A stretch of DNA of 63,739 nucleotides, the filler included, from Hausera hauseri (lineage: Eukaryota): the NCBI GenBank assembly GCA_046269625.1. It is 10 parts of 10 records of this genome, joined end to end, with 100 filler letters (N's around TTAATTAATTAA, not from the genome) between each part and the next. Parts side by side here need not be neighbours in the genome. Positions count along the whole stretch, not along the records: positions 39,095 to 45,323 come from JBJURY010122429.1; 9 more parts are not named here. One strand, 5' to 3'. Positions 7,672 through 56,565 of this stretch are shown in pieces (position 1 is the first letter of the stretch; each line of letters starts with the position of its first letter). The translations under genes and the position numbers were made by a program. Below the pieces are notes generated by a model. That model saw nothing but the letters and a program-made list of their open reading frames with translations. It was not told the DNA's origin and made no database searches.

Positions 7672-7690
7672 AAACCACGCTCTGCTACCA
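7672..7690 (-). promoter_or_regulatory. Primer binding site, initiator tRNA-Met type
   Basis: TGGTAGCAGAGCGTGGTTT, complementary to an invertebrate-type tRNAi-Met 3' end (...AAACCACGCTCTGCTACCA), lying between the 5' LTR and gag. Confidence 0.8.
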
Positions 7691-7695
7691 ACAAA

Positions 7696-10988: not shown

Positions 10989-11523
10989 TCGTCTGCGGTA
11001 ATTCATTTGTTCAATTTGACATTTATTTGTTACAATATGTAAATTAGTTAATTTGTTTAAATATTGAATAAATATCCGACGATTTGAATTTTGCGATTTG
11101 AAATTTAGTTCGGCCACTTTCTTTCTGAATTTGATATTTAACTGCAGTCCAACATTTCCCGTTTCAAAGTGAATTTGCAATATCGTGAAATCCTGAGATT
11201 TGGTTTTCATTCCACTTTTTTGAAATCCAGATTTTTCACTGGTCGAATTTCCTGCACACGTCTCAACAACCATTAGTAACGATATACGATATAATAGAAC
11301 CATCCAGCCAAAACGATCGGTGTCTATAGAAAACTAGACCTTTCGAGTTTGTACTTGTTAACTAATGAAGTATAATCGTTAATTAATATTAAACTTTACT
11401 TTCTGTCTATCCTATAATGATATCTAAGTATTTTACTATAAATTGCCACTTATTCATTATATGCCACGTTGTACCGACGCTTAAATGCTTCTAATTAACT
11501 CAAATATTACTTATTTAGATCGG

Positions 11524-18459: not shown

Positions 18460-18839
18460 TGATAACACTTACGAGCAAAGTAACAAACGATTCCTGTAGA
18501 TCTTTCCAATATCAATATCAGACAAATACTTCAATAAATTTCTATTTAGAAATTTCTCCCGAAGTACAACAAATAATCAATAAGTTTCCTTCTAGTAACA
18601 GAAATAATAAAAATAGAAATTCAGCCACGATTTTTCGTCAGTTAGTAAAATAACTGCTGTTATAACCAATTCAATTAAACTAATTTCATTTCAGTATTTA
18701 TAGTTATTTTTTACAAGATAAATTTAGCGCCGGCGCGAGTAGAAATTGTCAATTAATTTTGATTCAGCCGCGCGCGCTGATTTTAAAACTTAATGCTAGA
18801 CTAGTGCATCTAGTCTAGACAATAGTCATTTTATCAACA
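18460..18839 (-). repeat. Candidate 3' LTR
   Basis: Starts TGTTGATAA right after the purine tract AAGGGTCGGGGAA (18840-18852). TATAAATA near 18695; ends ...GTTATCA at about 18460. No second LTR is available to confirm it. Confidence 0.6.
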
Positions 18840-18999
18840 TTCCCCGACCCTTAAGGGATTAATACAAAAACGAAAAAAATGAAAATAATATTTACATAAC
18901 TAATAAATGAGTCTAATAACTAAAGATGAAAAATAATAAAAATGAAGAATACAATAGATACAAGATAAGAAAATAGCATGCAAGAGTAATCACAATTTT

Positions 19000-19797: not shown

Positions 19798-20855
19798 CTC
19801 CCCGGATCAACTACATTATTAAATGTTTCCTGCGGTGTCCATGATACCTGGAAAGGGTTTGTTACCAACTGAAAAACGTCCATAGTGAGTTTCAATTTGC
19901 CGTGGTCGTCTTGCGCATAACCTTGACCATTTTTAAATCCAGGTAATTTCAAAAGAGTACTGATATTTACTAACGTTAGTTGTTGGAACGTGCGTCCAGT
20001 AATTTCTTCGTGTTTCAGTAAGTCTACCACTCCAGCAAGATAATTGAAAGGAATATCGAAAACCTCTATCATCCTGTGGGTTTCTAATCCGATTACCACC
20101 GTTCCAAGCAACCAGTTAATCATTTCTTTTGTGACATCAAATATGTCTTGTATATGATAAGCGATATATTCTGGTAATATGCCATGCCGTATTGAGTTGA
20201 CGTTATGTAACTTCTTCCTGTTAGCTACAATTGCTTTGTATAATATAGCACCTCTTTTGTTGGCAATAATGACGTGAATGGGTAGAGGGCTATTATCTTG
20301 CATATAACCTGTGGATACAGTTAATATTCTGATGGTATTGCTCTGACAAGTATTTATAAAATTGACCTTGGTTTGTATTATTGTCTCCGGCGGGTTATGT
20401 GCTAAGACCATAGGTCTTGGCAAATACAAATGTTTTTCCGGCAGAAGACATTCGATTATCATAATTATTGGAAGGTACAATGGTCTGACTTGGATCAAAT
20501 CAATACTCATAGGGGTATTGATAAAATAAGTTTCTTCTTCGCAAATCGAGTTTGTGATTGCATCAGAATATCGACTTTCATTTCTTGTTTTTAAACAAAT
20601 CATTCCTCTGGCCACGTGTATTACTATCCCATCAATAGCATCTGTTTTAGCCATATATTGTTTTAATTCAAATTGCTGAGATTCATGAATTGTATATATA
20701 CCAAAATTCCTATTCATGGTTATTTCGTGCTTTAATTGGTTGGGGATACGAACCACATTTAAAGCTATGAAACACTCAGTTTTCACCATTTGTCTTCTGA
20801 TGTTGTTATAAAAGGTTTTTGACAAGGTTTTATTAAAACTACTTCTTGAAACCAT
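19707..20855 (-). CDS. Accessory ORF with a C-terminal REX4/ISG20-like (DEDDh fold) domain lacking catalytic acids
   Basis: HVIIANKRGAILYKAIV...HGI...FDVTKEMINWLLGTVVIGL...LTLVNIS..L follows the REX4 pattern VSIVN..G.VLYD..V...SGI...F..V..EV..LL.G.ILVGH. Domain at about 19863-20333. Confidence 0.6.
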   Translation of the reverse strand: MVSRSSFNKTLSKTFYNNIRRQMVKTECFIALNVVRIPNQLKHEITMNRNFGIYTIHESQQFELKQYMAKTDAIDGIVIHVARGMICLKTRNESRYSDAITNSICEEETYFINTPMSIDLIQVRPLYLPIIMIIECLLPEKHLYLPRPMVLAHNPPETIIQTKVNFINTCQSNTIRILTVSTGYMQDNSPLPIHVIIANKRGAILYKAIVANRKKLHNVNSIRHGILPEYIAYHIQDIFDVTKEMINWLLGTVVIGLETHRMIEVFDIPFNYLAGVVDLLKHEEITGRTFQQLTLVNISTLLKLPGFKNGQGYAQDDHGKLKLTMDVFQLVTNPFQVSWTPQETFNNVVDPGSCFTIEKNTCRILHGSIIQPEELIRTQRLL

Positions 20856-22173
20856 AATTCTGAACTAACGTTTGAAAATCTAATTGATCTGCGTGGTATT
20901 GAGGATGTAGTTTTGAATACAATAAGTTTGATTCTATTTGTGAATCGTTTCTCGTCATTTTTGGGTTTTGGCGTTTCATTTTGAATTTCTGTTGATTGAA
21001 TTGATAGAGGACTGAAAATAAATTAAATTCATTTAAATACTCACCTTTGTAGCTTTGTATACAACATACAACCAATGAGCATGTTAGAAGTTCAACTATT
21101 TGTGGGGACGCATGTAGTGTGTGCGATGATTGCTCGTGTAGATGACTAATTTGCAATCGCCATCTTGAAATTAGTGGGCAGTGACACGTGTTAGTGTCAG
21201 TATGACTGTGTCTGACTATTTTTGGAATAATTAAAGTGCCTATAGCCAACGTAAGCAACAAAGCTATACTTAATACAATGATTAACAAAGCACATATAGT
21301 AATACTTAGCTCAACATTATCAATTTTTGGTCTCATAGTCCGAGATTCGTTTCTACTATCTTTTTTATTATAACTAAATTTAACTACATTATTTATTTTC
21401 TGTAATGTTTTAACATAAATTTCTGAATAGTAGGTACAGTTCTTTACTACTACTAAATATTTAGTATCTGAGCTTAATCCTATGCAATAGGCATATTTTT
21501 GTTTTCTTTCAAAAATAATTCTCTGTTTATGGTGTTGGTTTATACAAGTTATACTAACCCATGCATTCCGAGTATTCGTTTGATGATTCCAAGCGAACTC
21601 TATTCTATCTTGTTTAGGATAAGTTAGTACAAACAAGTTATCCGTAATTTCTATGTCATTATACTTAGCCATCTTTTTATACTCCTTATAGGGTATGTTG
21701 CATATATTTTGTTCGGTCATGAAAGTAGTATCATACACAGAATCATTAATTTTAAATGGTATTAGACATTTAATGCTAGATTTAACTGTCAAATGTAAAT
21801 CCCATCTCTTTTCTTTATTGATCTTAAAAATTAGTGCTAGTAGGGAGAATGGTTGATTTATAACCAATAAAAGACAGGTTAAAATATTGTCTTTATATAG
21901 ATCCGCGAAAGCTAATTTGTCTTTATAAGAAATCACTATTTGTACTATGTTGCTAGTAGGTCTCTTTTTAAATCTTATACAACCTTTTTCAAAGTTTGGT
22001 CCTAACACTTGCATTTCTTTGTTAAATATCTCGTCACCAGATGTATGATTTTGATTCTGTTTTATTAGTTGCACCATTGATTCATAGGGGATGTTAAATT
22101 GACCATAACTCATATGAGTGCATGATAACCAAATAGTAAATACACAAATCATAGTTAGCAGATTGGTGGACAA
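20839..22173 (-). CDS. Type I membrane protein-like extension of Pol: hydrophobic signal-like segment, FN3-like domain, TM helix
   Basis: LLTMICVFTIWLSC, then IEFAW...IGLSSDTKYLVVV...YVKT (FN3 Trp and Tyr-corner pattern, ~21403-21642), then LSITICALLIIVLSIALLLTLAIGTLII (~21223-21309). Same frame as integrase. Confidence 0.7.
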   Translation of the reverse strand: MSTNLLTMICVFTIWLSCTHMSYGQFNIPYESMVQLIKQNQNHTSGDEIFNKEMQVLGPNFEKGCIRFKKRPTSNIVQIVISYKDKLAFADLYKDNILTCLLLVINQPFSLLALIFKINKEKRWDLHLTVKSSIKCLIPFKINDSVYDTTFMTEQNICNIPYKEYKKMAKYNDIEITDNLFVLTYPKQDRIEFAWNHQTNTRNAWVSITCINQHHKQRIIFERKQKYAYCIGLSSDTKYLVVVKNCTYYSEIYVKTLQKINNVVKFSYNKKDSRNESRTMRPKIDNVELSITICALLIIVLSIALLLTLAIGTLIIPKIVRHSHTDTNTCHCPLISRWRLQISHLHEQSSHTLHASPQIVELLTCSLVVCCIQSYKGEYLNEFNLFSVLYQFNQQKFKMKRQNPKMTRNDSQIESNLLYSKLHPQYHADQLDFQTLVQNYGFKK

Positions 22174-22284
22174 TAACTTTGGTGATGTAAACCCGAATTT
22201 TCCAGTATACGATTTTGGAGCCTTTGTTACATTTTATATGGAAACATTCTCTATTTTTCCAGGAGACTTTTCTATGAACAGGGT

Positions 22285-29056: not shown

Positions 29057-29318
29057 ATACATTCTTGTTCGTACAAACCATTTAATTGTGCGGGATGAAA
29101 TAAATAAATATAATTATTACCCACAAGTAGAATAATTGATTAAAACCCATTTCGTTTTAGACGAAATGTAAAAGATCGAATATACGGAATACAGAACGCC
29201 AAGACAATATTTATTTCAAGAATTATCCCAATTTAACATAATAAGATATCTATGATATTATAGAAATAGGCAGAATGGACCAGCTGCGATTATTAGAAGA
29301 ACGATAGATTATACTAAG

Positions 29319-30340: not shown

Positions 30341-30838
30341 CAGTGGGAGCATCTCGATTTTGAACGAATTTTTACCAATAAGTCAGTTTGTATTCGATTT
30401 AAACAAATAAATGTTTATTAGTTTATGTACATAAATTTATTAAATAACCCTCTATTGTAATATATTGAACACATTTGTTTATGGAATTAGTGGATACTAG
30501 TAGAATGACTTTAACCAACCTCGACAAGTGGAGAATCCAGTTACTAACTATAAAGAATCAACTTCCTAAAATGGTTTACGAATGGTATAAACTATATAAT
30601 GACCTCTACTCATTAGGGTAATGGAACTAGGGTACTCCAAATACTTGGCGATGGTTGCTATTAAAATCGATGAAAAAGCCGGATATGAAACACTACCATC
30701 AGTGATTACCAACATATATCAAATACAATTAATGGATGATGAATACTACCAGAGAGTTCAACACTTGACTTCGACATTAAAAGGAAAAGAGGAAGAAGTG
30801 GAAGAAAATATACTGATATGAGCCGTGCAATTTGGACT

Positions 30839-30990
30839 TGTTTGATTTGTATAAAAAATCAGTCAAATACGATACACCTACCATGCGGACACATGATTCA
30901 TTGTAAAGCTTGTGTAACTAAACATTCAATGTTATAGAAATGTACTGTGTGAATTACCTATAGAAGAAATCTGTACCATATATACGTACT
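30839..30990 (+). pseudogene. Third RING finger (IAP/MDM2-type spacing), disrupted
   Basis: CLICIKNQSNTIHLPCGHMIHCKAC....*KCTV/ELPI. Not in the ORF track because of a stop and a frameshift. Confidence 0.8.
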
Positions 30991-31024
30991 AAAATGTATA
31001 GAAACTTAGCCTCCTTTAATAACA

Positions 31025-33500
31025 GTGGAACAGGGACATCAATATAATACTCGATCCCGCGGACGATTGGCACAAAATCAGTTGACTGCAATTAATGAAG
31101 CTGATTCAAGCGAAGAAAACACAAGCCCCACTAATAGTTCAAATACTTTAAGTACAGCATCAGCCCCAGAATCATTACTTGACATTGATCCATTACAATT
31201 GTCTCCAGTTCCAGTACAATACCATTGGATACGAGGAGTCAGTGGACGACAAAGGCCACCTCGAGATCAATACCACAATGCACCTAATTCGCGTCAGTTA
31301 GCACAGAGAATTATTAATCAAGAATTAGAATGTCGAACACGTTACAAAGTACATTAAGTAAATGTACATAATTTAAAAATAAGACAGAATCAGGCGGAAT
31401 ATACCATTCGACAGCTACTTAGAGATATACAAGATATAGCCCGACAAATAGGAGACTGTACAGTAGAAATAAGTATCATAAATAAGAGTATGAGACTAGA
31501 TAATGTCGAAAAAAGAAATATACGAATAGAAGAAAAAGTAAATGGTAACGGCACAAGTCTAAATGAACTCGAGGAAAGAACGGATCAAATAATACAAAAT
31601 ATAGGTGCCAATACTAGACAAATACATAATTTATAACAGCAAACTATGGACAACATAGCAGCAATACATAGAAATATGAAACAGATCGAAAATAACGAAA
31701 GAAATGCGAATCAATGGTTAAATGAAATGCAAAATCAAGTAGCAATTATAGTTTGCGAACAAGAACAGATACAAGTAGAAAATAACCTTATCAGAAATCA
31801 AATTGATGTTTTGGCTAGAAACATTAGCCAACTAAACGAATGCCTTAAACACGTACAGGCGAAAGAATTAATAGCTTGACTGAATGAACGAATAGAAGAT
31901 GAGCAATCACCAGAATTTTCAGCGAAACTAAGTTCTATACCTTGTGAAACCTTTGATACCGATAGTGACAACATGGAGCCGCTAAGGAATAATCAGGATC
32001 CCTTGGCTCAGCATGGTGAGCGTAATTGTGGTCTGCAGAGGGATATAAATAACAATTCCGGTTACGACCCACCAAACATTAACGAAAGAAGGAGAAAAGA
32101 GAAGTACCAAATGTTCCCTCGCCTTCAATCATACGAAGGACGAGTATCGGACTTAGAGGATTTTTTAGACGAATACGATTCGCTAGCAACAGCCATGCAT
32201 TGGGTGATGCAAGGAAAATATCTCTTTTACCAGTGCATGTGAATAATTATCTGAGAATGGCAATAACACGCCTACCTAGACGTGTTGACGAAAATTGGAC
32301 GCAACATCGAGAAAGAATTTTACAAAATCAACAAGGTGATGTACAAGAAAACCGATATCTAAAATTTCAAAACTGTAAACAGAAACCGAATGAAGAAGTC
32401 TTAACATACATCAACAGATTTAAAAGCGCAATGAATAGATACTTTGGTTTGAATGAAGAAGCCCTTGGGGATATGATCATGAAGCAATTTGTACTTGGAC
32501 TTTTACCAACTTTACAAAAAGGAGTCAAATTTCATACAGCAAATAATTTTAATGAATTGATAGAATATATCCAACGAATAAAAACTGGAATAAACGAAAC
32601 ACATGTCTGGACTAATCAGAGGCAAATCTCAGCAGTAGCCACAACATTATTGTTAGTAAGACCAGATGTAGCAAATAGTAGTAATTCACCTAGGAGTGAT
32701 CTGTCGAGAAGCCAAAGCCCTAATCGGCAAGACAGCAATACACCACAGAGAGGCAACACTCTGGAAAGCGGAGTTATAACTAATCATCCAGAGACTACAA
32801 CAATAATCAAAGAGATACCTCATATCAAAGAAGTAGAAGATACTATGATGATCGACAACGGAATAATACAAAATACAATAGATCACGAGTTTACTCGAGG
32901 GCCAGAAAGGACAATAGAAACCGATTTCCTAGTAGAGAAAGGTACAGTAATGATAAAAATCCCAATCGTTATGATAATATAAATAATCAGGGGAACCAAT
33001 ATCATAGACGAGATGACAGCCTAACGCGATATCCGACTAATCGGTCGGAAGGATTAAGAACCAACTATTCCAACGACAGGCGAAGTAAAAGCCATGAGAG
33101 GTTTAGAAGAGATGATAGCCGAGATCGATATGGTATCTTCAATAGAAATGTTAGCAGAGAAAGAGATAACAGAAGAAGTGATAGCATAGACAGATATAAT
33201 TCTGGAAATGATAATAGTAATAGGTATAACGATTCGAGATCTGAAAATCTTGACAGAAGGCATGACTATACCCTACCTGGACGAGAATTAGACAGATATA
33301 ATAAAAATCCCAGTCCATATCCTGAAAGAGATCGAAAACAAACCCCATCAACCAGACCAAGCAATAATAATGACAGATATGCCCGACCACCAGATTATAG
33401 TTCCAGACGAAACGAGTCATCATCAAACAGAAATATTTTCTCATCCAGATACGATAGAAATACGACATCCGAATATCCTAAGCACCAAAATGAAAGCAAA
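31025..33500 (+). pseudogene. gag: Ty3/Gypsy Gag: coiled-coil N-terminus, capsid, long R/S/D/N-rich tail without zinc knuckle
   Basis: YNTRS near the start, then heptad-rich 31330-31880. Capsid FPRLQSYEG...FLDEY...A.AMHW/DARKI...FQNCKQKPNEEVLTYINRF...FVLGL lies at ~32111-32590. Confidence 0.85.
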
Positions 33501-35731: not shown

Positions 35732-37680
35732 CTGCGAGAAAGAAGAATAAAATCGACTTTAATTTAACTACTGGTACATCATTATTGAACATCGGAATCC
35801 ATTTCACAAGTCATCCAACTTTTGGTGCACAAAATACATAACACCGACAAGGGTCTGTCTACGTGCTTTTTATCTTATGAATTTTAACCACTGAAATATA
35901 ACTCGGGCAGCAGTTTTTCAGATTACCTTTTATTCCGATTTGCCATTGCCAAAAAGTCTTTAGTGTGGGGAAATTATTCACAGGAATCAAAGAATGTAAC
36001 GTCTGTCTACAATTAGATATGCAGTTCGGTTGCATCTACATTCTTGTTTATTAATTTCCGGGAAAAAAACGGAGTGTCGTCAACGCAGTTTGACATGTAT
36101 TTTGAACCATCGTCACTTTTATTATCCCAAGTCAATTTGTTTACTGTGTATTGCGTCTTCTGTATAAAAATAGACAGGGAAATTATCAAAAGCGATCCAC
36201 CGTGGACTTGCTCAACAGTGAAACTAATAAATGGGAAAAACTGATAATTAATGTTAACAAAAACCAAAGATGAACTTGGATTTAAATACATTTCAAGATA
36301 CGTTTGCCATCAGAGTTAATGAAAAGGGATATATACATTATATATAACGGGCTCTTTTTGAAAACTGACGAAATCTTACACCCCAAATCTGTTGTAGGTA
36401 CATTTTACATACCCCCACCCATTCGTGGTTGTACAATAAACATACACAGTTGGAAACGACATTGTGGAATCCTTAGCACAATAGCCCGCCACGGATAAAA
36501 ATAGGTCACCGAGACTCGTGTATTCCGATCCTTATACGCTATCTTGGGTAGCGGGGTTAAACAAAACGCTCAGATTTGTCAGTAAGTTCAAGCAATTTAA
36601 GTAGTCTTCGCGCTAAAGAGATGAAGTTGTTAATTGAAGTCCTATAGGGCGTTACATCATGATGTTAAATAGAAACACATATGCGCCAATCAGCATGTTA
36701 AAAAAATAGGTTTAGTCCATTCACTTTTAGCGGCTGGCGTTATGCTGACAACATAACCGAATCATGCGCCGGTGTCGAGGAGAAATGTGGACATTAACTC
36801 TACATTTCCCTATACGCCTGTCTTTAGGCTTTAAATAGACTTTACTTTCTTCACTCTTAAAGGCTTGAGTATAGGTAACGTTGAATTTATGTCCCCATGT
36901 TTCATTGACACCTGTACATGATTCGGTTATGTTGTCAGCACAATGCCAGGCCCACTTCACGTTCACATATAATTTATCTAGTACCCATGTTTGAGGTTGA
37001 GTGAGCGCTGGGTTTGTTTTGGTCGTAAAAATCGAACCCGTCACAGCCCGGATAAAATCCACGACCATGCGATCTGCCTGCGACTACTCGACAGTAGAAG
37101 AAAACTAACTCTGTGGCGCTGGTATTCAGTAAGACATTGGACGCCATGCTCAAGAGAGATGGATCATTTAAACGAAAACAAATCTTTCCCCCGTAAAGCT
37201 TCAGGTGGTCACATGTTAAGCAAAACGCACTCAACATATCACACAACAACACCACCATTTTGCACAACCGAGAATCAAAGTAAATAATAATAAAATATTT
37301 CCAAACGACGTGCAATAAAACTTGGGTGAGAATTTCAAAGCTTAGAATATTCAAGAACTTCCTCTCACACCTGTTTACTTCATTCACATGTCGGATTTGG
37401 TGGGACAAGGGAGTATCTCTTCATTATTTCATTATTATTTTTTCTTGTTTAGTTTAACTGTAATCTCTTTTTATTTTAATTTGTTTTATTGTATTCTTTC
37501 ATTTATTGTTTTCTAGTTTATAGCTATTTCATCTATATTTTTGTAATAGTTAATTTCCTGGTTATTATTATTATTTTTAGTATTATTATTCTTCCTTTTA
37601 GTATTTTTCCTTCACTTTGATATCTTCCTGGATCCGCTAAATTCGACTGTGTTAGTTTGTGTTACTTCTGTGTATTGTAT

Positions 37681-39094: not shown

Positions 39095-40660
39095 TTACTA
39101 ATTCCGATGAATTTGGAGAGACAGCATTGTAAGCAAGCTAGAGAAACAGGAAGAATAAAATTGGATGGTATGGAAGTGAAAATGCAGCAAGGGAAAATAA
39201 TCAGAGTGTATAAAGTGGCAGCAGGAAAACTAGATATGCATACTCGACATTGTTGCCGTGCGGAATACGATACCGGAAAGGGACTAGAGTCAAACATCGT
39301 TGTAGTGGATTTTTACAAAACCGAAATGCGTATACAGAAAGTGATGTTTCATAGCGTTACTAAACTTTACACCGAGAACCACAAGTGCCACATTCAGGAT
39401 GGCACATGCCCGTTTCAAAGTTCCGTAGTAATTTGGGAACCCCCAGCCAAGACCGATTGCAACTTTATCAAAATTAAAGAACTTAAGTTCAACGAGACGA
39501 CAGGAAAACGATATATAACTAGCACGGAAACTAACTCTAAAACACGAGAAGATGTGGCCAAACAGTCCACACCTACTATACTAATTTCTGATACTCATGG
39601 ATTAAAATTTGTAAAGAAAGCTATGCTCAACAGATGCGACATCGTAATGTATGCCACCAACTATAAAGCATTTTTCGTAACCGAGACAGAAATAAACGCC
39701 AGAACGTTGAAACTCGAGACTCAGGACATTCGGATCGAAGACTATTTGAAGAACAGAGACGACTATTTCTACTGTAAAGGACAAGTTGGAATAGCCAAAT
39801 TATACCACAAAATGATAACAAATGACTGTAAATTCACTTGGAAATCATGATAACTAAGCTGGTCCTGATATACGCCAATCCCGAGTTGGCATCACCAGTA
39901 ATTCCGATTAAAGAGGGTGTTTTTGGACGAGTAACCGGAGAGGTCTTATTGATCTATGAAAGTGAAAAGAAAGACGTACCGATTAATGTGGAGGAGAAGA
40001 GGTGTATACAAGAACTTCCAGTGATGTATCAGGACGTACCGAGATTAGTCACACTAATTACCAGAGTGTTGTTGGCAAACGCCACTCAACCGACAATTTT
40101 GAGAGACTGCAAAACTAGCTTAGGAGAGCCGATGTTCAGATGTAGCAAGACCGACTGGTAAGTCTACCGAACGGCGGTATTATCTCACCACCTACCAAGC
40201 TGACAGGAAAAAACCTGATAAAAGGAATAACCGATGATAAATTTCAAGATACAGCCGCAAAGGGTATTTACCGACCCAAATAAGTAGAGGCGTTTATACA
40301 ATTTCTCGCTTTTCCGCGCCAACGTACATATGAATTAAACAGAGCGATGCACACAATATTGGAGGATTCGCGGTACCAGGCGAAATGGGAGTATTTACTT
40401 GGTGTTGGCTATTACAAGAAGGTAACTACAGAAATATTATACAAAATTTGGGGAAGATTCCTGATATTTGGGCAAGCCGCGTCAGGATTTTTAGCGATAT
40501 ACTTCTTAATTCAACTAGTAAAAGCTATAATTCAAGCAATCATAAATGGATACGAGATATTCACCTTGACAGGATTTTCGTGTAAAATTTTAACGGTTAT
40601 TATTACACCCTTCGGTAAATTCTTAAAGGCTTATGAAGAAAGTAAATGGAAACAGATGTG
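39095..40660 (+). pseudogene. env: Envelope-like class III fusion glycoprotein (chuvirus G / gB-like family), 5'-truncated, frameshifted
   Basis: Ordered motifs: CHIQDGTC....VIW....DC; CDIVMYATNY; EGVFGRVTGEV; RCIQELPV; ITRVL...DC....F....W; FQD.AAKGIY....L.FP; W..F..FGQAASG plus TM plus INGY. Confidence 0.8.
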
Positions 40661-41304
40661 GAGCGGCATGTTGGTTACCATAATCAAAAACGTAGAAAAC
40701 ACATATTCGATTATAGGCAAAAATTCATAGTCAGTAAGACACAAAGAAATAATTCGGATAATAACGAGCCTAAGGGAGGAGACGGCATCTCCAGGCTAAA
40801 AAGGCATAGAAATTACTCCGTTATGAAACTACCGTTACCAATACTGCTGCCAACGGCATCTATATATGAGGATTGCGAGAAAAAATCTGAGTTCGTGTCA
40901 GACAGACGTTTATCGGAAGCCTTTCAATTTAGAGGACCCTTACGAAGGAACAAAACGCTATGGGATATTGCGTATGATCCACGAAACGGAAAGGACGTCC
41001 GCCCCACCTCGTCGGTCAACAGTCGACGACCACGGCATAATTTACTCACCTAGAATACCTAAGCCAAACAAAATGCAATCGATATTTACTCGAAGCTGTG
41101 AGGCACAAAATTCCCGAAACCAAGATGTTCAGCCACCGGTTAGAAACCAAAGAGTAGAAAACACAAATGGTCCAAATAACGAACTATATCCAATTGGAGA
41201 GCTAAGACAATTAATCGATCAGCCAGTTGGAACCACTAAAGTTACCATCAACAGCTACAAAGTGTCTACGATACGACAACCCAAGATAGCACCAAGTATT
41301 ACGG

Positions 41305-41660
41305 TAGAGTAATCGAAGGCAGGCCCTTCGCAAAGATTCAATTGGAAGATTTGGAGGTTTATTCACTAATAGACACAGGATACGAAATATCACTGATAAA
41401 ATATGATTCAATACCACAATTCTTACGGAAACAATTATATCCACCTCCTACGACAGACCCAGGAAGCATTGGAGCTTTCGGACAATCCTAGAAGAGTAAA
41501 TTCCGATGGAAACCAGAAATTTACATAATGGGATAATCTTTTCGTCATGAATTCTCAGTAATGGAGCAATTAACGGATGATGTAGTGCTAGGATGCGATC
41601 TATTGAAACAACCACCTAATATAGCAATCGATTTCAATGCAGGCAAGTTGATAGAACTTG
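41305..41660 (+). pseudogene. pol: Retropepsin-type aspartic protease
   Basis: RPFAKIQLEDLEVYSLIDTGYEISLI (DTG at 41372-41380) and DVVLGCDLL. Frameshifted, so absent from the ORF track. Confidence 0.88.
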
Positions 41661-41719
41661 GCCCAAAAAAGGTGTTAAAACCATTAAAGACAAAAAATTT
41701 GGAGAAGTATGGATCCCCG

Positions 41720-44700
41720 TAGACGAGAACATACCGCCCAGAACTGAAATATTAATATACGCTCACATACGTCAGGATGACGATAAACCAGTATATTTCG
41801 AACCAAAAGAATCGCTCAATCCAAACCTCGTGCTCAACAACGTTTTGACAAGAGTATCAACGGGCCGCGTGCCAATCAGAATAGCGAATAACGCAACAAC
41901 TCCGATCAAACTGTATGCCAATACCACTTTGGGACACATGTATAGAGTATCATCCATTACCATCGAAGAGAAACCGTATAAGGGTGCCGAATTTCCACCC
42001 CACGTTGAAACTAAATTCTCACCGGAATTATACTGCCGATTCTACGAATTACTTTGTCGTTATAGTTCGATTATCGCGAAAGATGAAGAAGATATTGGCC
42101 GAGCCAAAACCTTAAGGCTTACCATCCCGCTTAAGAAGAAGTCTGGCTCCAACGACCAAATAGACTTAAAGGATCAAAAGATGCCGAAATGGTACCCTCC
42201 TCCACACTCGCTAAGGCCAGAGATAACTAAGGAAGTTGAACGAATGTTAAAGGCTGACATAATGAGACCAAGCTATAGATTTTGGTATTTACCTATCCTC
42301 ATAGTTAAGAAGAAAGGCACCGCGAAGCACCGATTCTGTATCGATTATCGAGTACTAAACACACTTATGATGAAGGACTCCTTCCCATTGCCATCGGTAA
42401 AGGAAGCTTTGGACAGACTTTCTGGAGCTAAATGGCTCACCACTCTTGACTTGCAATCCGGATATTGGCAAGTGGAGATAGAGGAGGAAGATCGTTACAA
42501 AACGGCATTTAAGACACACGATGGCATATACGAATTTAATGTCATGCCTTTTGGAATCACTACCGGATTAGCCATTTTTACGCGCATGATAAATAAGATG
42601 GTAATAAGATTGGAACACGCATTTGCCTACTTGGACGATGTTATTATTGCGTCGAAAACGAAAGAAGATCACCTAAAGGACATTGAATGTACACTCATGA
42701 GAATGGAGCAGACTGGATTGAAACTGAATCCCAAGAAATGCAAATGGGCTCAAAATGCGGTATTGTACCTTGAACATATAGTTGCAGAAGGAGGATCGAA
42801 GCCGAATAAATCATTATTGAGTAAGATATCGGATTGTATGGAACCTCAAAATCAAAAGGAATTAAGACACTGGTTGGGGCTATGTGGGTATTATGCAACC
42901 TACATATCCGATAACGCAAAGATAAACGCACCTTTACATCACATACTCAAAAAGAGATTAAATAGAAATGGACCGACATAGAACAAAAAGCTTTTGACAA
43001 AATGAAAAAGATTCTGAGTAGTGAACCTGTTCTACGGTAACCCGACTTTAACCTACCGTTCATAATTAAAACAGACTCCAGTAAGGAAGGTATCGGATAT
43101 GAACTGGCCCAGAAACGAGAAGACGAGGAGCAAGAGCACTTGATTGCATATAGAGGACGTTCTCTAAAAAAAGCTTAGAAGAACTATTCCGTAACAGAGT
43201 TGGAAACATTGGCAGTAAAAGAAGCACTGAGACATTTTAACATGTACGTCTATGGACAAAATATTATAATCGTTACTGATCATAAAGCAGTTATGACTTT
43301 GAAAGATAGAGCAAATAATCCAACATGCAGATTAAACAGATGGATAGAAGAAATTTCACGTTATAATATTGAATTCCAATACAAGTCCGGAAATAAACAT
43401 ATCGACTCCGATGCATTATCGAGACTTAAAACTAAAACAAGCGCAGTTCCTGTAATGAGGAAAGCACACCTCGAAGACTTAGTAGAAGGACAACGGACTC
43501 TCGTGCTGGATAAATCATTAAGGATTTCTTTCAAACAAAAGAAGGACGGAGTTATACAACAAATTATCGAGTTCGTTGACACCAACGTAACACCCAAGGG
43601 TCATCAGTTACGGAAACAACTACGACAATATGGTCATAAATACTGCGTCGTTGGAGATTTAAACCACAAAAACGTGTTAAACTACGAACGAAAAGGACAA
43701 AAATTGGTAGTCATACCAAAAGGATTGCGTACGGAAGTACTCATAACCGAACATGATTCATACTTAGCCGGACACATGTCGTGGAAAAAGACATTAAAAA
43801 GGATATTAAATAAGTACTATTGGCCGAGTATTTATATCGACGTAAGAAATTGGATGAACGCTTGCGAAGTATGCGCGACCAAACAAAGAAAAGTAAAAAA
43901 AGCTACATTGCCAAACTTAAACCTATCCACGTGCCAGATAGACCAATGTAAGCAATGTCTATGGATATTGTATGACCACTGCCTACAACCCACAAGAATA
44001 ACAAATACATTTTGACCTGCGTAGACCGATTGACTCACTTCGTCGAACTTGTAGCGTTATTAGACCAAAAGGCCGAGACCTTGGCAGAAGCCGTAGTTCG
44101 AAAAATCATTTGCAAATACGGGCCACCCGAACAAATTTTGACAGACCGAAGAAGAAACTTTGCGAGCGAATTATTTAACAAAATTAACAAGATTTTTAAA
44201 ATTGAACGACTAACTACCACAGCTTATCATCCCCAATGTAACGGAATGGTCGAACGAATGAACGCGACAGTTATACGAATCTTATCAACAGTAGTCGCAA
44301 AAGACCAGAAAGATTGGGATGAGTTCTTAGAAGGTATACAGTTTGCCATTAATACGACTTCACATCCTGCGACAGGATTCACTCCGTTTTTCATGATGTA
44401 TGGCAGAGAAGCTGTCCTGCCTACCGATTTAGGATTAATTCCCTACGCAACGAAAATGGAAGATCTAGAGCAGAATTTTGTTAAAGTATTACAAACGAGA
44501 TTGCATAAGTGATGGAAAATAGCCAAGGAATTATCTAAAGAATACCAGGAACAATTCAAGAAGCAATACGATAAGAAGGCTAAACCGCACGATCTGGAAC
44601 CCGGAAACTGGGTTTACGTGCACTACCTAGTGGCAAAGAAAACACATCTCTTAAACTCACACGGACAGGTAGAGGACCTTACGAAGTTACCAAAGTAACA

Positions 44701-44760
44701 CCAACCACAGTTTATATAAATAAAAACGGCAAGGAAGAGATCATATCAATTCAGAGAATA
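41720..44760 (+). pseudogene. pol: Gypsy pol: post-protease (dUTPase-like) spacer, RT, RNase H, integrase
   Basis: RFCIDYR.LN, LDLQSGYWQV, KTAF, VMPFG, AYLDDV, IIKTDSS, NYSVTELE, TDH, EHDSYLAGH...C..C, ILTD, TTAYHPQCNGMVERMN, GRGPY. Confidence 0.96.
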
Positions 44761-45285
44761 GTTAAAACGGAAATAAGACTAAATAAACGCTATAATTTGC
44801 GTTCGAATAAAGTCAGTAAGGAAAGGAAAACATCGTCAATCGTAACCAGACCTATATCATATGTACAAATAATCCTTGTCCTATCGCTAATCGTTTCTTA
44901 TGTACCCAAGGTAAAATTAATAACTAGAGCCGAAAAACTACGATACGCAATGAAAGGCAGGGATATCCAGAAAATGCAATCACTTAGAGTATACGATATG
45001 GATTGTAGAAAACCATGTGCATGGTTTGAAGCAAGCGAACCTATTCAGATCCACGTAAAATTTCAAATAATATTTGTAACCAGATCCACGATGAAAACAT
45101 GTGATTTTTCATATGGATATCACAAAAGAAGCTGTGATTTGGATTTTGGACAAGCCTACGGGTACATATTTCAAATGTTTTATTTTAATCAGTTTGGAGC
45201 TCAAGCTTATATAATTATAGAACTCGTAAGAAGAATGCCCCAACGAAAGGACGCAAACCAAACCAAGACAGACGAAATAATTTAA
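44761..45285 (+). CDS. In-frame extension of integrase with a hydrophobic segment and a Cys-containing domain
   Basis: The frame from 44641 (SLKLTRTGRGPY...) is stop-free into ORF 44797..45285, which contains YVQIILVLSLIVSYV. Confidence 0.75.
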   Translation, partial: VKTEIRLNKRYNLRSNKVSKERKTSSIVTRPISYVQIILVLSLIVSYVPKVKLITRAEKLRYAMKGRDIQKMQSLRVYDMDCRKPCAWFEASEPIQIHVKFQIIFVTRSTMKTCDFSYGYHKRSCDLDFGQAYGYIFQMFYFNQFGAQAYIIIELVRRMPQRKDANQTKTDEII

Positions 45286-45423
45286 CGCACTGACCCATTT
45301 AAAAGATTCTTAGACTATAACATNNNNNNNNNNNNNNNNNNNNNNNNNNNNNNNNNNNNNNNNNNNNTTAATTAATTAANNNNNNNNNNNNNNNNNNNNN
45401 NNNNNNNNNNNNNNNNNNNNNNN

Positions 45424-46539: not shown

Positions 46540-49500
46540 CCGCTCCTTTCCCTAACTGCACCGAATTCTTTATTGACAACCAAGGCTCCAGCAAAACTTG
46601 GTTGAAATTCCATCAATTATAGCTGCAGGCAAATAACATTATTGACTCTTTAACTAAAGCACATAATCATTTCTTCTTCCTCCCTAATAATATCAAAACC
46701 CGCATTCACAACATCATCAAAATCTTTCAACTTCCAGACCCATATTCCCAACTTTTTAACGCAGTTCTTAAGATTACAGAACCTTCCATGGACACGATCA
46801 TACAACGTTTCTTCCACGACAACGTTATAGGCACCCAACGACCATTGGAATTCTTACGCACCTCTTTAGCATATCTACATACCCTCGGCGTCACTAGAGA
46901 ATACAACCCAGATCTACTGCGCCATTATTTCCTCAATGCGTTACCTATCCAAATTCGGGCCCTACTTACCGTGGTGGAGGACTCCACGCCGCTTGAGAAA
47001 TTGGCCAAATTAGCCGATAAAACACAATGTCCTACACGTAAATTTACCACCAGTTGTTTCAGCAGCAGTTGCTGCTAACGATATTACATCCATAGAACAA
47101 CAGCTTAATCAGCTACGTGTTGAAAATATTGCACTGCGTGCGACAATCAACAATATCAATAATAAATTAAACAAATTGTCTCTGTCCCGCCGAAGGGTTT
47201 TGCTGCTGACCGCGCCCATTCTGCGTCTAGAAACAGCTCATTATCTCCTGCGCCTTCGTCAATCTGCTATTACCACAGAGATTCAACACTAATGCTGTGA
47301 AGTGCTTCCTAGTGTGCAAGTTTTATAACAAGAATTTTCCTCAGACACCGTTGTTTGCATCTACCCTGCAAGGATCAAAAACCAAGCTCGTAAATGCATT
47401 CCAGGCTGCACTTTCAAATCCAATACAAACGACGGACGTACTACCTTTCCTTCTAATAGTCGTCCTAATTTACGCTTTCAAAAATAACTAAGTCCGCCGC
47501 CAGAAGTCACGGCAAACTCTGGCAAAGGCACTACTTCACTTTCTGAACGCCGACACGTCTCTTTTGCTGTCTTTACTCTAAAGGCTGCAATCACCGCTCC
47601 TACAACGCAATCTGTTGACTTCCTCATCGATACAGGTGCAGTGATTTATTTATTACAACAAACCTTTCCTCTACAAATTTTTTTATTCAGAATTAAACCC
47701 TTATACACTGCTTCAGGCCAACCGCTGCACATTTTTGGCATGGCTAAATTATCTTTCACTTTACAAAATTTTCTCTTACCTTTCCACTGGACGATTACAG
47801 TCGCTAACGTTCAGACGGCAATTCTAGGGTCCGATTTTCTATCACACTATAATTTATTGGTTGACTGCAGTCAGCGATGTTTGAGGAACGGCACCACTGG
47901 CGACATTTATGGGCAAGTCAATAGCATTTCGACTACCGCGCAGTCGACCGGAATGCGGAGGTCAATCTTAAAAAAATCAATGAATAATTCGAATTTTCAT
48001 AACAGTAATTCAATTCGTAAATTTTTAAATAATAATATTGATATTCAATTGAGGTTCGATGTCGATAATTGTGGTACTGCCACCAACGTTAATTCATTTG
48101 ACGAAATCACTTCACCCTACACAATTTTCAATTCGACCATCTTACACCAAATACCATTTGATTGCACATCACCTAACAAGTCACAAATTGCATCCGCTAC
48201 TACTCAAGCCGTTCACCACTTTCACCAAATCTCTCACAGTTACCTACAACTTTACAGCAATTTGTCAACACATCATGTCCACGAGTACTTAAAAAAGATC
48301 GTACGTTTACTCCTGCCAACAGTACTTTACACCATATAGTTACAGCATCAACGACCTGTACGCCAAAAAGTACGGCCTCTAACACCTCGTCGTATACAGG
48401 CCGTAGAAGTCGAATTTCTTGAACTAGAACGATCCGGCATAGTACGCCGTTCCAAATCTCCTTGGTCATCACCTTTACACATTGTACAAAAAGGACGGTA
48501 CCTTTAGACCATGCAGTGACTACCGACAGTTGAACAACTTGACTATCATGGATATTACCCTTTACCACTCATCAAGTACATCTCGCATCGTCTTAATTCA
48601 ACCACCATTTATTCGACCATTGATTTAGCTAAAGCATACCACCAAATACCGGTGGCACCCGAAGACATAGAAAAAACTGTTGTCATTACTCCTTTTGGTC
48701 TCTATGAATACCTGTTTATGCCTTTCGGTTTGCTGAATGCAGCACAAACTTTTCAGCGGCACATTGATTTAGTTCTTTTAGATTTCCCGTTTGCACACTC
48801 TTATATCGATGATATTCTAGTCGTTTCATCTTCGGCCAAACAACACGAGGCACACCTTCGCACAATATTCAAACGTCTTAACCACCATAATCTCCCAGTC
48901 AATTTCGACAAATGCCATTTCTTCAGAAAGCGCATTAACTTTTTAGGCCACGTTATTTTACCAGGCGGTCATTCTCCCCAACCAGATCGATTTGAAGCTC
49001 TCAAAAATATCCAGTTGCCACTTACAACCACGGAAAGAAAAAGTTTCCTCCGTACACTACACTTTGTACATAAATATGTACCATATTGTTCCGAATTGAC
49101 AGCACCATTCGCACACTTAAGCGGCGGCAAAAAACATCAACCCATCCAGTGGACACCTGATTTAGCTGACAAATTGGATAAGCTACGCGAAGGAATTAAG
49201 ACCGTCCATATTCTTGCTTTCCCCAAGCCTGATGCAGAACTAATACTTACTACAGACGCGTCAACCACTGCAGTAGGCGCTGTACTCCACCAGATCTACA
49301 AGGAAGAAAATCAACCACTAGAATTTTTCTATCGCATGCTAACAGCCACTGAAACCAGATATTCAACGTTCAATCGAGAACTATTGGCCATCGTTCTCGC
49401 TTTAAAGCATTCCTCCCACCTACTTGTCTCTCGTCATTTCACTATACAAACCGATCCAAGCCCTTATTTAACATCGTGGCTATGAAACACCCTTCCACAC

Positions 49501-50950: not shown

Positions 50951-52873
50951 ATGAGCGTGTACGCCAGTTCTGAGTCAGGTGTGATTCAGCTGCCGCTCTC
51001 CAACTGTCCCAGATACTCTTCCTGCTTCGAATGCATCTTCACCAGAGATCCTGACTGCGCCTGGGACGGAGCTGAGTGCGTGGACGTGATGACGCAGGCA
51101 AACAGGTGACAGTGGAAAGCTGTGTGTGATCGGATCAGTTGAATGAAGTGTTTGTTAGTGTAGTGTTATTATGTTGACCTGAGTTACCTGAAGTACCGCC
51201 ATGCTCTGTCACTCTGTCAACACCCAGAACTGTTGCGTAACCAACCAGGCTGCAGAAACTCAACCCTGCTGTAATAATAAACATGTTGTGCCGCTTTAAG
51301 CGTACTGATTAATGTAGACAGAGATGCTTCGTCAGTATAAAGCAGCTGTGAACGATACTACAGATATAAATAAATCATCTTTATTCTGTGCATTAATGCG
51401 CTCACTGTTTTCTGTTTCTTCTTTCCACAGATCCACTTTAATCCAAGACATCCACCAAGGCAGAACTGGCTGTGAGAAAACACAATACAGTAAGTCGAAT
51501 TCTCATCTAAAGCTTGATCGTGCCGCTTTGAAAAAGTTTGCTTTGACATGTAGAAACAAGATTAAAAATAGCAAATTTAAAGCTGAAAAGATGCAAAGTT
51601 GTCATCAGACAGCGTGAAGGCCTCTTTGAAGGTTGATTATATGGATGGTGTTGGCAAAAAGCTCTCCTCCCTTCTTTAATAACATCTTTGCCTTCTCTGG
51701 AGAGAAACGTGTTTGATATTCAAGGCAGGCAAATGCCTTCTCCCCACTTATCAGTTTCAATCTGCTGAAATGTACCATCTTCTCCTTCTCTCTCTCCCTC
51801 ATTGAGGTAATATAATGAGAGGATTGAAATTGTTTCTAATTGGACCTCTTGCCATGATAAGTCCTATAGATGTTAAGTAATTAGTTTATGTTTCAGGTGT
51901 TGTCCAGCGGAGCCGCTCTGTGCGGGTTGGTAATGACGTCCTGCTGCAGTGCGAGCTCAGTTCTAACCTGGCGACGCCTCTGTGGACGCTGAATGGTACC
52001 GAGGTGCAGGGCTACGATCTCAACTCGGGCTTCCGAACCGGGACGGATGGGCTGCTGATCATCGAGGCCCGGCAGGACCAGAGCGGCTTCTACACATGTC
52101 ACGCTGTAGAGAACAACATCAAGGTCGCTGTTGTGACCTACAATGTAACCGTCGACCTTGATCTGCCCCCTCCACCAGGTGAGCCTACTCACAGCCCCGC
52201 TGTAACGCTGCCAGCTCCATCCAACGGTTCTTCATCTGAGAACTCCTCCACTGAGGACCACGGATCACCACTCCTCCTGCTGTCGCCTAAGAACATGGAG
52301 GCGGTCTATCTGTCCCTCATCACCGTCCTGGCCACCCTTTGTGTGGTGCTCTGCGTGGTCCTGGCTTACGTGGGCTTCTGCTTGCGAGCTGGACAGCGTG
52401 GGAAGTACTCGGTGCGCGCCGCAGCTGCAGCCCACCCAAGCAGCAAGAAGAACAGAAAACATCCCAGAAACTCTTCTTTAAAGGAGGTAAAGACCGTCTC
52501 CAGTTACTGCAACGGCAACGGCCTTTATAACGGAGTTTCAAAGCACCAAAATGCCGATGTTCCAGACGAGGGCTTCCTGCATATCGTCCCCGGTGAGGGT
52601 CAGACCTCCCTCAATAAAGAGCCTCCTCCCCCAGCGCCCCCTCTCCCTCCCACCTCACAGTTTTCCTCCCCAGAGTGTGACTTTCCCAACGGGCTCTCAG
52701 CGACATTGCCCAGCGTTTTGAGGAGGATGAACGGGAACAGCTACGTGTTGCTGCGGCAGAGTGACTCTGAAACATCCCCGCTCTGCAACCCCTTTGCCGA
52801 GGAGCTCAATAAGATTTTAGAGAAGAGGAAACACACTCTGCTGCTGCCCAGACCCGATGAGAGCTCTGTGTAG
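50951..52873 (+). CDS. sema4g: Semaphorin-4G (teleost), last three coding exons 50951-51105, 51431-51489, 51897-52873: PSI, Ig, TM, PDZ-binding tail
   Basis: CPRYSSCFECIFTRDPDCAW (PSI), LQCELSSNLA...W...YTC (Ig), a TM helix, MNGNSYVLLRQ and FAEEL..ILEKRKHT...DESSV. GT-AG junctions keep the frame. Confidence 0.92.
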
Positions 52874-55237
52874 AGAGGTGCCGCTCTGTTTTAGACTCTG
52901 ACTGTGTTTCTAACCTGTGCCTGTTACCATGACTCATCATTGTTGTGGACTAAAGCAATGAAGGAGTCTTATGTACATGTTTTTTTGTTTGTTTTGTTTT
53001 TGGACAGTTTCACTTTTAGAAATTCCTGCTTTCTGAACCTAACAGCTCTTTTTCAATACGAATTACTTATTTCCCAACACAGCACAAATGAAAATGAGAA
53101 ATCTCTGCAAAGGCCCAGAGAATCAAACAGAAAAAAACGTGCAATCTACCTCACCTCAACACTGCCTAGAGAGAGAAAGACTGAATTATCACGGATCTGT
53201 GAGGAGCAAAGCAGGATAAACAGGCTCTAACAAGGACTGTGGGCACATGGGAGCACAGATACATAAGAGATGTTGATTTATACTGTTGGGCAGCTAGCCT
53301 CAGTCTGTTTGCACTGACAAGTGCACCGTTGTCCTATGCATTATTAAAACACGCCATTCATTCACTTATAAATATTGATAAAAATGGAAGCAGTGAGAAG
53401 GGGAAGTTTGATTTTATTTCTAACAGATATAAGAGCTTTTATTTTGACGTTGCAGCTGCTGCTAACCACACGTAGTCATTGTTTTTCTGATCAGATTGAT
53501 GTGATAATTCCTAATGTCATTGATCTGCTTCACAAGAGACTCTACCGTCTGTGATATTCCACGTCTTGCTTTACAGCCTTCATGACATTAGAGCGGTTCA
53601 GGTTCTAGTTAGAGAGGCCTCCTATCAGGCAGAAGACATGACGAGACTTGTCGTCCTCAGCTGTTTTTCAAGGCGGTGCAGTCCAAGACTGTTGGAATCT
53701 GGAAAGGAACTCAAGTACCACAACAGCAGCAAGATGAACAACCTGCTTTAATGAACTAAACCACAATTTTAAAAGAACCTATATACTATCAGCACATTTA
53801 TCTAACTGCCATAGCAAAATAAAAACACAATGCAACACACAAGGACTAAACGGTGAACTGATCATTATTTAGTATCATTAATCATACACTCTAAGCAGTT
53901 TTTGTCAAATTAATAGATATAGTTTTGTCAAAATAATATAATAAATCTGTGAATAATTACATTATATGTGACAGAGCTCTAATATTTGCATGCACAGACT
54001 AATATGTTAAAAAGTAAATCATGTCAAAGCCATGGTTTATTTATTTTTTAACATTTTTGTTTTCTACAAGACAAATATATGCAGGAATTGTCAAACTCCT
54101 ATAGTTAAAGAATAATATTAAATAATGATTATGTCACCAAATGCTGATATACTAACATCAGCCTGTTTAAACTGTCTGTTTAAAGCACTTTAAACACCTG
54201 TTTTAATGTACTTTGGGAAAGTTAATGAACACTATTGTTAAATGTAAGCCCAAAGAAGGTTTTGCCCTTTTCTCTGTGCAACTGTGGAGTCTGTGGCTGT
54301 GTCTGCAGGACGCTGGTCGACACAATGGATCTAAGAAAAACACTGAATGAGTCCCAACCCACCGCTGAGTGATGCCCAGCGTGAGATGGCAGCACAGACC
54401 GGCAGACTGTGGAGCACTGAAAGCATCCAAGGGTAATAGTTTTTCCTTCCTACCAACACACCTCGAACACGGGGGTACTTAACCAAACAGACACTTTAAG
54501 GCAGGCATCTTCGAGTTAAGAGCCAATAATCACAGAAAACGCCGCAAGCTCAATGTATCTCTCAGTCGACTGAATTTACATTCGCTTGTTTGCAGACAGC
54601 TTGTTGATATGACAGCTGTTTATAATTTGTGGGGAAGGTTTGGAGTGTCCCAAATGGAAACATCTGCTGGTGTCTGGTTCACACGAACGCTTTGTCACCG
54701 AGGACAAACTTACAGTCTAACAGAGTCATTCATGTGTGAGAGACGAAGGTGGTGGAATAAGCACCAGATTTAATTTCTAGAAGTGGATTTTAACTTCTGA
54801 CTTATATGAATCTCATTAGTCCAGCTCACTTTACTCGTACGGCAGATTTATTGTTGCGCAGATTCGGTCATTATCTCGTTCAGTCTCACAAGTTTTATTT
54901 TCTGGATGAGTCGCTGCGTCTCCGTCTGTCAGAGCGTGGCAGTAATTAAGCATTCATCCTGCGACGTGTAGACCTCAGTGGAAAGACAGAGCTGTCCCCA
55001 GACATTTACACTCTGCTCCAATCTCAAATTCCCAATTATTTTCTTGTACCCTTGGGCTTAGGATGTGAAGGTTTTTTATCATTACTGTGTCTGATAAAAT
55101 GTAAATGCAGGAATAAGTGCACCCTTACAAACACATAAAGCAATCCTACATCTCAGTAGATACCCTGACTGAACTGAGCATGACGGTAATAAAAGAAGTG
55201 GGGATTTAAATGACCCCACTTTTTACGTTGTACTGTA

Positions 55238-56565
55238 CAAGCCCAATTCCAGTGAAGTTGGGATGTCGTGTAAAACATGAATAAAAAACTGAATATGTTG
55301 ATTTTCATTTTTTTTCAACTTATATTCAATTAAATACATTTCAAAGACAAGATATTTAATTTTTAGATTGTTTTTTTTTTTTCAAATATTCACTCAATTT
55401 GAAGTCGATGCCTGCAAAACGTTACAAAAAAGGTGGCATGTTTACCTCTGTGTTACATCATCTTGCCTTTTAACAACACTCAATAAGCGTTTTGGAACTG
55501 ATGACACCAACTGTTGAAGCTTTGTAGGTGCAATTCTTTCCCATACTTGCTTGATGTACAACTTCAGTTGCTCAACAGTCCGGGGGTCTCCGTTCTGGTA
55601 TTTTGTGCTTCATAATGCTCCACAATGAGCTTCCTTCGTAGGGTGGCCGGGCTCAGTCTTAGAAATAGGGTGAGGAGCTCCGTCATCTGAGCTCGGAGTA
55701 GAGATGCTGCTCCTCCACATTGAAAGGAGTCAGTTAAGGTGTTCCGGGCATCTGATTAGGACGCCTCCCTTTAGAGGTGTTCTGGGCACGTCTCACTGGT
55801 AGGAGGCCCCGGGGAAGACCCAGGACTCGCTGAAGGGATTATGCACCCTCTCTAGCCTGGGAACGCTTCAGGGTCCCTCAGGACGAGCTGGAAAGTGTCA
55901 CTGGGGAGAGGATGTCTGGGTTTCTCTCCTGGACCTCTTGCCTCAGCGACCTCACTACGGATAAGTGGAAGAAAATGGAGATGGAGATGGAGATAATGCT
56001 CCACACATTTTCAATGGGAGACAGCCCTGGACTGCAGGCAGGCCAGTCTAGTATCCACACTCTTACTGCAAAGCAACACTTTTGTAATGTGCAGAATGAG
56101 GCTTGGCATTGACTTGCTAAAATAAGCAGGGACGTCACTGAAAACGACGGCACTTGAGCAACCTTAAAAATAGGCTAAAGTCACAACAGACGAAATCCCT
56201 AAAATCCTTGCAGTTGTACATTGAGAAACATTGTTTCTAAACTTTTTGCTCACTCAAGCCTCATCCTTGCTTGTGAACTGAGCCTTTCGGGGATGCTCCC
56301 TTTTTTTACCCAACCATGACACCCACCTGTTTCCAATCATCTGTAAAATGCTCCATACAGGTGTTTTTTAACATTACTAGCTTTTTGGGAACATGCTGCA
56401 TCCAATATTTGCAATAAAACAATAAAGTTTATCTGTTTGAACATTTAATATATTATCTTTCTAGTGTATTCAACTGAATATAAGTTGAAAAGAATTTGCA
56501 AATCATTTTATTCTGTTTTTATTCAAGTTTTACACAACGTCTCATCATCCTTGGAAATGAGGTTG
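55238..56565. mobile_element. Deleted fish Tc1-like DNA transposon
   Basis: Long inverted termini (CAAGCCCAATTCCAGTGAAGTTGGGA... and ...TTGGAAATGAGGTTG) with TA on both sides. Minus-strand LDWPACSPGLSPIENVW is a transposase motif. Confidence 0.9.
55625..55992 (+). mobile_element. 5'-truncated RTE-clade LINE (Rex3/Expander-like) nested in the Tc1 element
   Basis: (GATGGA)n tail and the 13-bp target duplication ATAATGCTCCACA (55612-55624, 55993-56005). Confidence 0.85.

Follow-up and report, generated by a model that had tools for sequence, protein, structure and literature searches.

The open frame that follows the integrase of a dead retroelement in the Hausera hauseri genome probably belongs to an accessory gene for a type I membrane glycoprotein with FN3-like domains, of which 44848-45321 would be the 5' third. 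The complete gene product would carry a cleavable signal peptide, a short helix, tandem FN3-like domains, a TM and a short cytosolic tail. The window, that is, the whole stretch of 63,739 nucleotides that was analysed, is made up of 10 contigs that are unrelated to one another and separated by N spacers; for this reason, no sequence past 45323 belongs to the element described here. Two contigs carry the argument: C7 (39095-45323), which bears this frame, and C3 (16301-24075), which bears a sister ORF (Table 1). The evidence comes from two dead copies and one homologue.

Table 1. Features of the C7 and C3 elements, in window positions.
Feature	Positions	Strand	Basis or remark
C7: gB-type env (mononegavirus/chuvirus-like class III), broken, with C-terminal TM	39095..40730	+	5' end lost at contig start
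C7: decayed Ty3/gypsy pol (protease, RT, RNase H, integrase zinc finger and core)	41310..44640	+	Pfam; protease by eye
C7: GPY/F integrase C-terminal module	44647..44766	+	Frame differs from C7 integrase core
C7: basic linker with RYNLRS motif	44767..44847	+	8 K/R vs 2 D/E
C7: signal-peptide-like hydrophobic segment	44848..44907	+	Aligns to P0003 aa 12-31
C7: first predicted FN3-like beta-sandwich domain, with Cys	44974..45240	+	Shuffle tests vs P0003; P0003 model
C7: N-glycosylation sequon	45256..45264	+	Aligned position as in P0003
C7: premature stop (45283-45285), then codons homologous to P0003 interdomain linker	45283..45323	+	tblastn
C3: sister ORF (P0002), in frame behind integrase tail; signal-like segment, two beta domains, TM, tail	20839..22233	-	
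C3: beta domains of the sister ORF	~22023-21730 and ~21657-21388	-	
C3: TM of the sister ORF	~21309-21223	-	
C3: polypurine-tract-like run then TG, likely start of 3' LTR	18835..18852	-	By eye; no second LTR in contig

The C7 element, a dead member of Ty3/gypsy, has its gB-type env upstream of pol and in this respect is errantivirus-like. The env is broken by stops and frame changes; Pfam PF24664 (Monjiviricetes_fusion) matches it at 40284-40727 (E 2.2e-15) and 39832-40158 (E 2e-4), while the same search gave no PF24664 match over 39095-39847. It lies directly upstream of pol, with a gap of about 600 bp from its end to the protease. The stretch from the env TM to the protease (40646-41312, + strand) contains some 600 bp of overlapping open frames without Pfam match, perhaps the tail of env or a linker joining env and pol. 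In pol, Pfam detected RVT_1 (E 1.6e-33), RT_RNaseH (E 1.2e-14), Integrase_H2C2 (E 1e-17) and rve (E 4e-10), and the order protease, RT, RNase H, integrase, with the protease placed by eye, is that of Ty3/gypsy elements (Metaviridae). Aligned with the intact pol P0008, C7 pol runs through three frames and contains 6 stops. The contig ends inside env on one side and inside the FN3 ORF on the other, gag and the LTRs being beyond it.

Behind the integrase core, the frame 44584-45285 (+ strand; protein P0001) has 233 codons without a stop. By simple arithmetic, at the stop rate of this contig (0.068 per codon), such a length has a chance of about 1e-7. An earlier sequence-only reading had described a stop-free frame leading from the GPY motif through a basic RYNLRSNK linker into a hydrophobic stretch and a Cys-containing region. 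All of it was located in P0001, with GPY at 44674 and RYNLRSNK at 44788; the hydrophobic stretch is YVQIILVLSLIVSYV (44860-44904), and there are four Cys, namely aa 141, 145, 173 and 184. The GPY/F module matches the C3 integrase tail at 37.5% over 80 aa (E 1e-6) and P0004 at 50%, the latter being a homologue of this tail that has itself a weak Integrase_p58_C match (E 0.019). The pattern [RHK]YxLR appears in the final 220 aa of 7 out of 47 integrase relatives and RYNLRS also in P0004; judged by this occurrence, RYNLRS is an ordinary pol tail motif. The same reading had proposed an integrase fusion, and of this proposal the single frame from the GPY module onward stands, while the connection further upstream is interrupted in both copies. 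Since a frame change near 44630-44645 separates the P0001 frame from the C7 integrase core, the C7 copy encodes no intact integrase fusion; C3 is in a single frame at this point and has two stops upstream.

A phmmer search with P0001 over 1.84 billion representatives gave three matches, P0003, P0004 and P0005. The best one, P0003 (479 aa, E 5.2e-21, 33-35% identity), aligns only with aa 87-233 of P0001, from the hydrophobic stretch onward. P0003 is an ENA singleton on a 4939-bp contig and is known here from the protein alone, which does not imply a retroelement origin. P0004 matches in the integrase tail only; behind its RYNLRS tail it continues in frame into an unrelated region that matches lipocalin/FABP weakly (E 0.0015, below cut-off). 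P0005 was discarded as spurious, being a repetitive protein aligned over only 30 residues. Among 3340 candidates, a word-indexed search with P0003 retrieved only P0003 itself, and a P0001-like tail was found behind none of the 47 integrase relatives (best E 0.76), all of which are merely 30-47% identical.

The similarity to P0003 runs through the premature stop of C7 to the contig end (tblastn, 35% over 181 columns, 44842-45321, E 1.5e-30), and the P0001 ORF is therefore the truncated front third of a longer gene, of which the window covers only the first FN3-like domain. In P0003, own Met residues precede a 19-residue uncharged segment at the N-terminus, and a TM at aa 424-451, of stronger hydrophobicity, is followed by a short basic tail. 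Together with its structural model this suggests a type I membrane protein with a signal, three FN3-like domains and a TM. FN3 domains and a TM had indeed been expected further downstream in C7, and P0003 bears this out by its model folds and its TM. Since the C7 stretch is the counterpart, in the alignment, of the signal-like segment at the P0003 N-terminus, it reads as a signal peptide. Position and hydropathy would fit this reading (the best 19-residue value is 1.82 in C7, whereas the C-terminal TMs reach 2.26 in P0003 and 3.14 in C3). The "membrane anchor" of the earlier description is thus not supported, as the TM of P0003 lies about 400 residues later. The sequon and three of the Cys are kept between P0001 and P0003, which is consistent with a secreted ectodomain.

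The FN3 fold is a prediction that was made for P0003 and carried over to C7. The AlphaFold model of P0003 (3-row alignment, low pLDDT of 49.5) shows three beta domains between two helices. Foldseek with this model gave 235 matches at E<=0.001, and the top rows were tandem FN3 proteins (gp130 D4-6, E 6.4e-9; fibronectin). With VIA-align, where a Z below 8 can reflect just a common arrangement, domain 3 reached Z 8.2 (rmsd 3.0, 76 aligned), domain 2 Z 8.0 (rmsd 2.9, 87 aligned) and the region with domain 1 Z 7.1 (rmsd 8.8, 115 aligned). Domains 1 and 2 of P0003 are mutual repeats (0/500 shuffles, z 10). The C7 domain (44974-45240) scores 169 against P0003 domain 1 (z 30.7, 0/500 shuffles) and has z 6.2 against domain 2. 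By its 33% identity to P0003, the C7 domain is predicted to be an FN3-like beta-sandwich, so that its fold rests on the model of P0003 and not on one of the C7 domain. Pfam fn3 had no match in P0001, P0002 or P0003 at E<=10; Pfam as a whole gave nothing for P0001 or P0002 and a sub-threshold match only for P0003. These findings carry a warning: an ORF at the env position behind the integrase need not be a fusogen and may instead encode an FN3 protein that Pfam misses.

As regards expression, the signal peptide would route the ectodomain into the ER, and the protein would be made either by translation from a start of its own on a subgenomic RNA, or as part of a Pol read-on product that signal peptidase then cuts. 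Under both modes the integrase would not be permanently anchored. A possible alternative, which we consider less likely than not, is that Pol and the FN3 protein form an obligate polyprotein in which the hydrophobic segment acts as an internal signal-anchor; Pol would remain in the cytosol, tethered to the membrane, until freed by protease or signal peptidase. The capsid anchor of flaviviruses offers an analogy for such a transiently tethered Pol. This alternative agrees with the FN3 anatomy and departs from the main reading solely in the mode of production; it amounts to the fusion of the sequence-only reading in a transient form. In both C7 and C3, GPY and hydrophobic stretch share a single frame across linkers of different sequence, for which the crude chance is 0.04-0.13 (C7) and 0.05 (C3), and in both an in-frame ATG ahead of the stretch is absent. 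The basic linker also suits a cytosolic N-side. Furthermore, in 2 of the 47 integrase relatives (P0012 and P0035) the frame runs on through a hydrophobic segment to a tail that looks env-like by eye and has no Pfam support; in P0012, however, a Met precedes the segment, so that an in-frame position need not mean fused expression. Long polyproteins are described, in the sections covered, for Burro of planarians (PMC6431247) and Cer1 of C. elegans (PMC10309623). On the other hand, P0003 stands as an ORF by itself, has a Met of its own and carries a leader that does not resemble the C7 linker; both copies are decayed with breaks just upstream, and none of 172 candidates for longer proteins contained the C7 region (P0001 aa 55-233) in a word-indexed search, which is a weak test.

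For the FN3 membrane glycoprotein read from this gene, our tentative suggestion is a role in surface adhesion or attachment of particles or producer cells to target cells, with fusion performed by the gB-type Env. Adhesion or attachment is most simply suggested because a fusogen is already present upstream and the FN3 ectodomain sits on a single TM. In agreement with what had been anticipated, two membrane proteins are found, one on either side of pol: the PF24664 env upstream and an ORF of predicted FN3-TM type downstream. Herpes- and paramyxoviruses divide entry between two glycoproteins. A similarly split entry in enveloped Ty3/gypsy elements of an invertebrate lineage, with the gB-type fusogen before pol, the FN3 attachment protein as the tail of a Pol polyprotein and an internal signal that parks Pol at the budding membrane, can be imagined and appears unlikely to us. 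If the gene is conserved, the second surface protein would be a candidate determinant of tropism or tool for manipulating the host, and these elements would stand closer to complex viruses.

Only slightly less probable than the adhesion role, and likewise tentative, is the explanation that the FN3-TM gene was captured from a host receptor or adhesion gene and modulates signalling or immunity, or blocks superinfection, in the producer cell, with no role in particles. In fold, the protein has cytokine receptors and adhesion molecules as its neighbours, and capture of host-type domains is common in this genome, since other elements in the window carry regulatory domains of this type, ubiquitin (PF00240, E 2.7e-18) and a RING finger (E 1.5e-7); Burro elements likewise carry host-type domains in the covered part of PMC6431247. 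Against capture, phmmer and word-indexed searches found no host parent. The FN3 fold is also generic, being common as well in phage tail and adhesion proteins, and a search of a viral fold library returned generic FN3 repeat proteins only.

The ubiquitin domain (6578-7102, - strand) opens the gag region of an element on the contig 1-11523, which was assigned by eye to the BEL/Pao type (RT piece, E 2.9e-5); LTR-like repeats on this contig, at ~1207-1475 and ~8981-9262, are 76% identical. At 29256-32979 (+) the RING finger (30180-30407) is upstream of a retrotransposon gag (E 1.9e-6), as is a BIR-like piece recognised by eye and without Pfam match; both recall the apoptosis-regulator domains of Burro elements. 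Another gypsy-type gag-pol lies at 46623-49485 (+; RT E 2.5e-26), and a mariner-type transposase piece (E 6.6e-8) at 62562-63050 (-). The 330-aa frame at 51881-52870 (+) has a higher GC content and matches an Ig domain (E 2.5e-6). Imperfect inverted repeats were found at ~36734-36949 and 55236-56567 (73% over 218 bp and 78% over 129 bp), and contigs 2 and 3 have a short repeat family in common.

The sister ORF of C3 has a single C-terminal TM (aa 309-337), as P0003 does, and it probably lies inside its element because it precedes the polypurine-tract-like run and TG. Between this ORF and the likely 3' LTR (19000-20864, - strand) there are two more ORFs of 385 and 268 aa, the former (19707-20864) DEDDh-exonuclease-like by eye and without Pfam or PDB sequence support. 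The sequence-only reading could not align the Cys region of C7 to the C3 extension, and the direct comparisons agree with it: the best BLASTP E was 0.31, the domain comparison gave z -0.3, a 3-sequence HMM gave a domain E of 0.94 and hhalign gave weak probabilities of 5.2%, this one through P0003, and 0.7%. Other comparisons with P0003 do connect both extensions. When P0003 was compared with the whole window, C3 was the second-best match (21567-21259, E 0.029). Between the ectodomains of P0003 and C3, TMs removed, 0/1000 shuffles scored as well (z 6.3 local, 7.9 global), and between their last domains 2/500 (z 5.1), with domain borders picked after seeing the model and a test that ran without unrelated FN3 proteins as controls. 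Both last domains hold a Cys pair 20 residues apart. In the ESM Atlas, P0003 and C3 have their two leading clusters in common (433 aa, 166 members; 255 aa, 50 members), amid FN3 membrane proteins, at scores of 0.88 that serve as leads only. The AlphaFold model of C3 (3-row alignment, low pLDDT of 41.4) contains two beta domains; domain 2 matches FN3 chains (Z 6.9, rmsd 3.2, 78 aligned), no FN3 match was obtained for domain 1 in the structural comparison, and the best Foldseek E was only 1.6e-3. This model is not independent of that of P0003, as their alignments had sequences in common.

The C7 and C3 integrases share a motif before GPY and group with a support of 91 in a quick tree of 47 database matches and the two window rows, a tree with two long-branch rows. 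Taking these lines together, we hold it quite likely that the two extensions are of common descent. C7 and C3 are probably one divergent FN3-TM family with three and two domains, respectively, a reading with moderate support whose link goes via P0003; accordingly, the "different downstream domain" claimed for C7 is probably wrong. Of the conserved architecture with an exchangeable ectodomain that had been proposed, the first part holds, since tail, linker and hydrophobic stretch share one frame in both elements, and the second probably does not. Because the C3 ORF is a two-domain relative, the gene would be an old, fast-diverging trait of the lineage and not a swapped cassette. It is improbable, in our view, that C7 and C3 captured exchangeable ectodomains independently and have merely the common FN3 fold. 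Such captures would fit the lack of direct C7-C3 similarity, and P0004, where an unrelated non-membrane extension follows the GPY-RYNLRS tail, indicates that tails vary behind the motif; the bridge through P0003, the shared Cys spacing and Atlas clusters, and the integrase motif and grouping speak against them.

That the extension is a second fusogenic env, as its location at the usual env position could suggest, or an artefact of decay or assembly in a dead copy on a short contig, is very improbable, given that the predicted fold is FN3 and not that of a fusogen, and that an intact homologous ORF of 479 aa (E 1.5e-30) and the parallel C3 case rule out a random frame. No fusion glycoprotein was detected for the downstream ORF by Pfam, and the top fold matches were FN3 proteins, not fusogens. 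The extension was also considered as the N-terminus of the gB-type env and rejected: it matches neither the env pieces nor PF24664, and the model of its homologue folds as FN3.

Current surveys treat env-bearing Ty3/gypsy elements outside flies as three-gene elements. The order of env before pol and the extra ORFs behind the integrase are already known from the covered sections of PMC13524379 and PMC5408684. GAG-ENV-POL errantiviruses with HSV/gB-type Env are reported there from Nematoda, Bryozoa and Platyhelminthes (Chary and Hayashi, eLife 2026, PMC13524379). Like C7, they have a Ty3/gypsy pol with a gB-type env upstream, whereas C7, a decayed copy, has in addition a second membrane protein behind the integrase; the terms "fibronectin", "FN3" and "accessory" have 0 occurrences in the covered main text of that study. 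An FN3 membrane gene behind pol in an env-bearing element was not found in the literature searched or in the covered text of the two closest papers (PMC13524379 and PMC6431247). In the portion of PMC6431247 covered, the Burro giant gypsy elements of planarians resemble C7 in their mononegavirus-like env between gag and pol, and they have captured host-type domains and carry accessory ORFs, possibly fused into the polyprotein; a dUTPase-like domain between PR and RT is a feature of Burro, and fibronectin has 0 occurrences in that portion of the review.

The structural matches gp130, IFNAR2 and FNDC5 have, like P0003, a signal, tandem FN3 domains, a TM and a short tail, with an identity of merely 6-17% that indicates likeness of fold and no orthology. 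Closer in genomic position, ORF3 of the bdelloid Vesta and Juno elements is, like the C7 gene, a non-env ORF behind a GPY/F integrase, in some cases with TM and Cys, and its types differ between families; those described in the covered part of PMC5408684 are DEDDy exonucleases, GDSL esterases, coiled-coil or short TM proteins, in place of env, and no FN3 type is among them. Membrane proteins of LTR elements have also been tied to cell-to-cell spread, as with Tor Env of Oikopleura (PMC4402516) and sORF2 of Drosophila (PMC11952523), according to the sections covered, and the Tor env is made from spliced RNA or from an internal promoter in pol (PMC4402516). Tor Env and sORF2 act, in these accounts, as fusogen or fusogen substitute, whereas in C7 the fusogen is a separate protein and the downstream one is predicted to be FN3-like.
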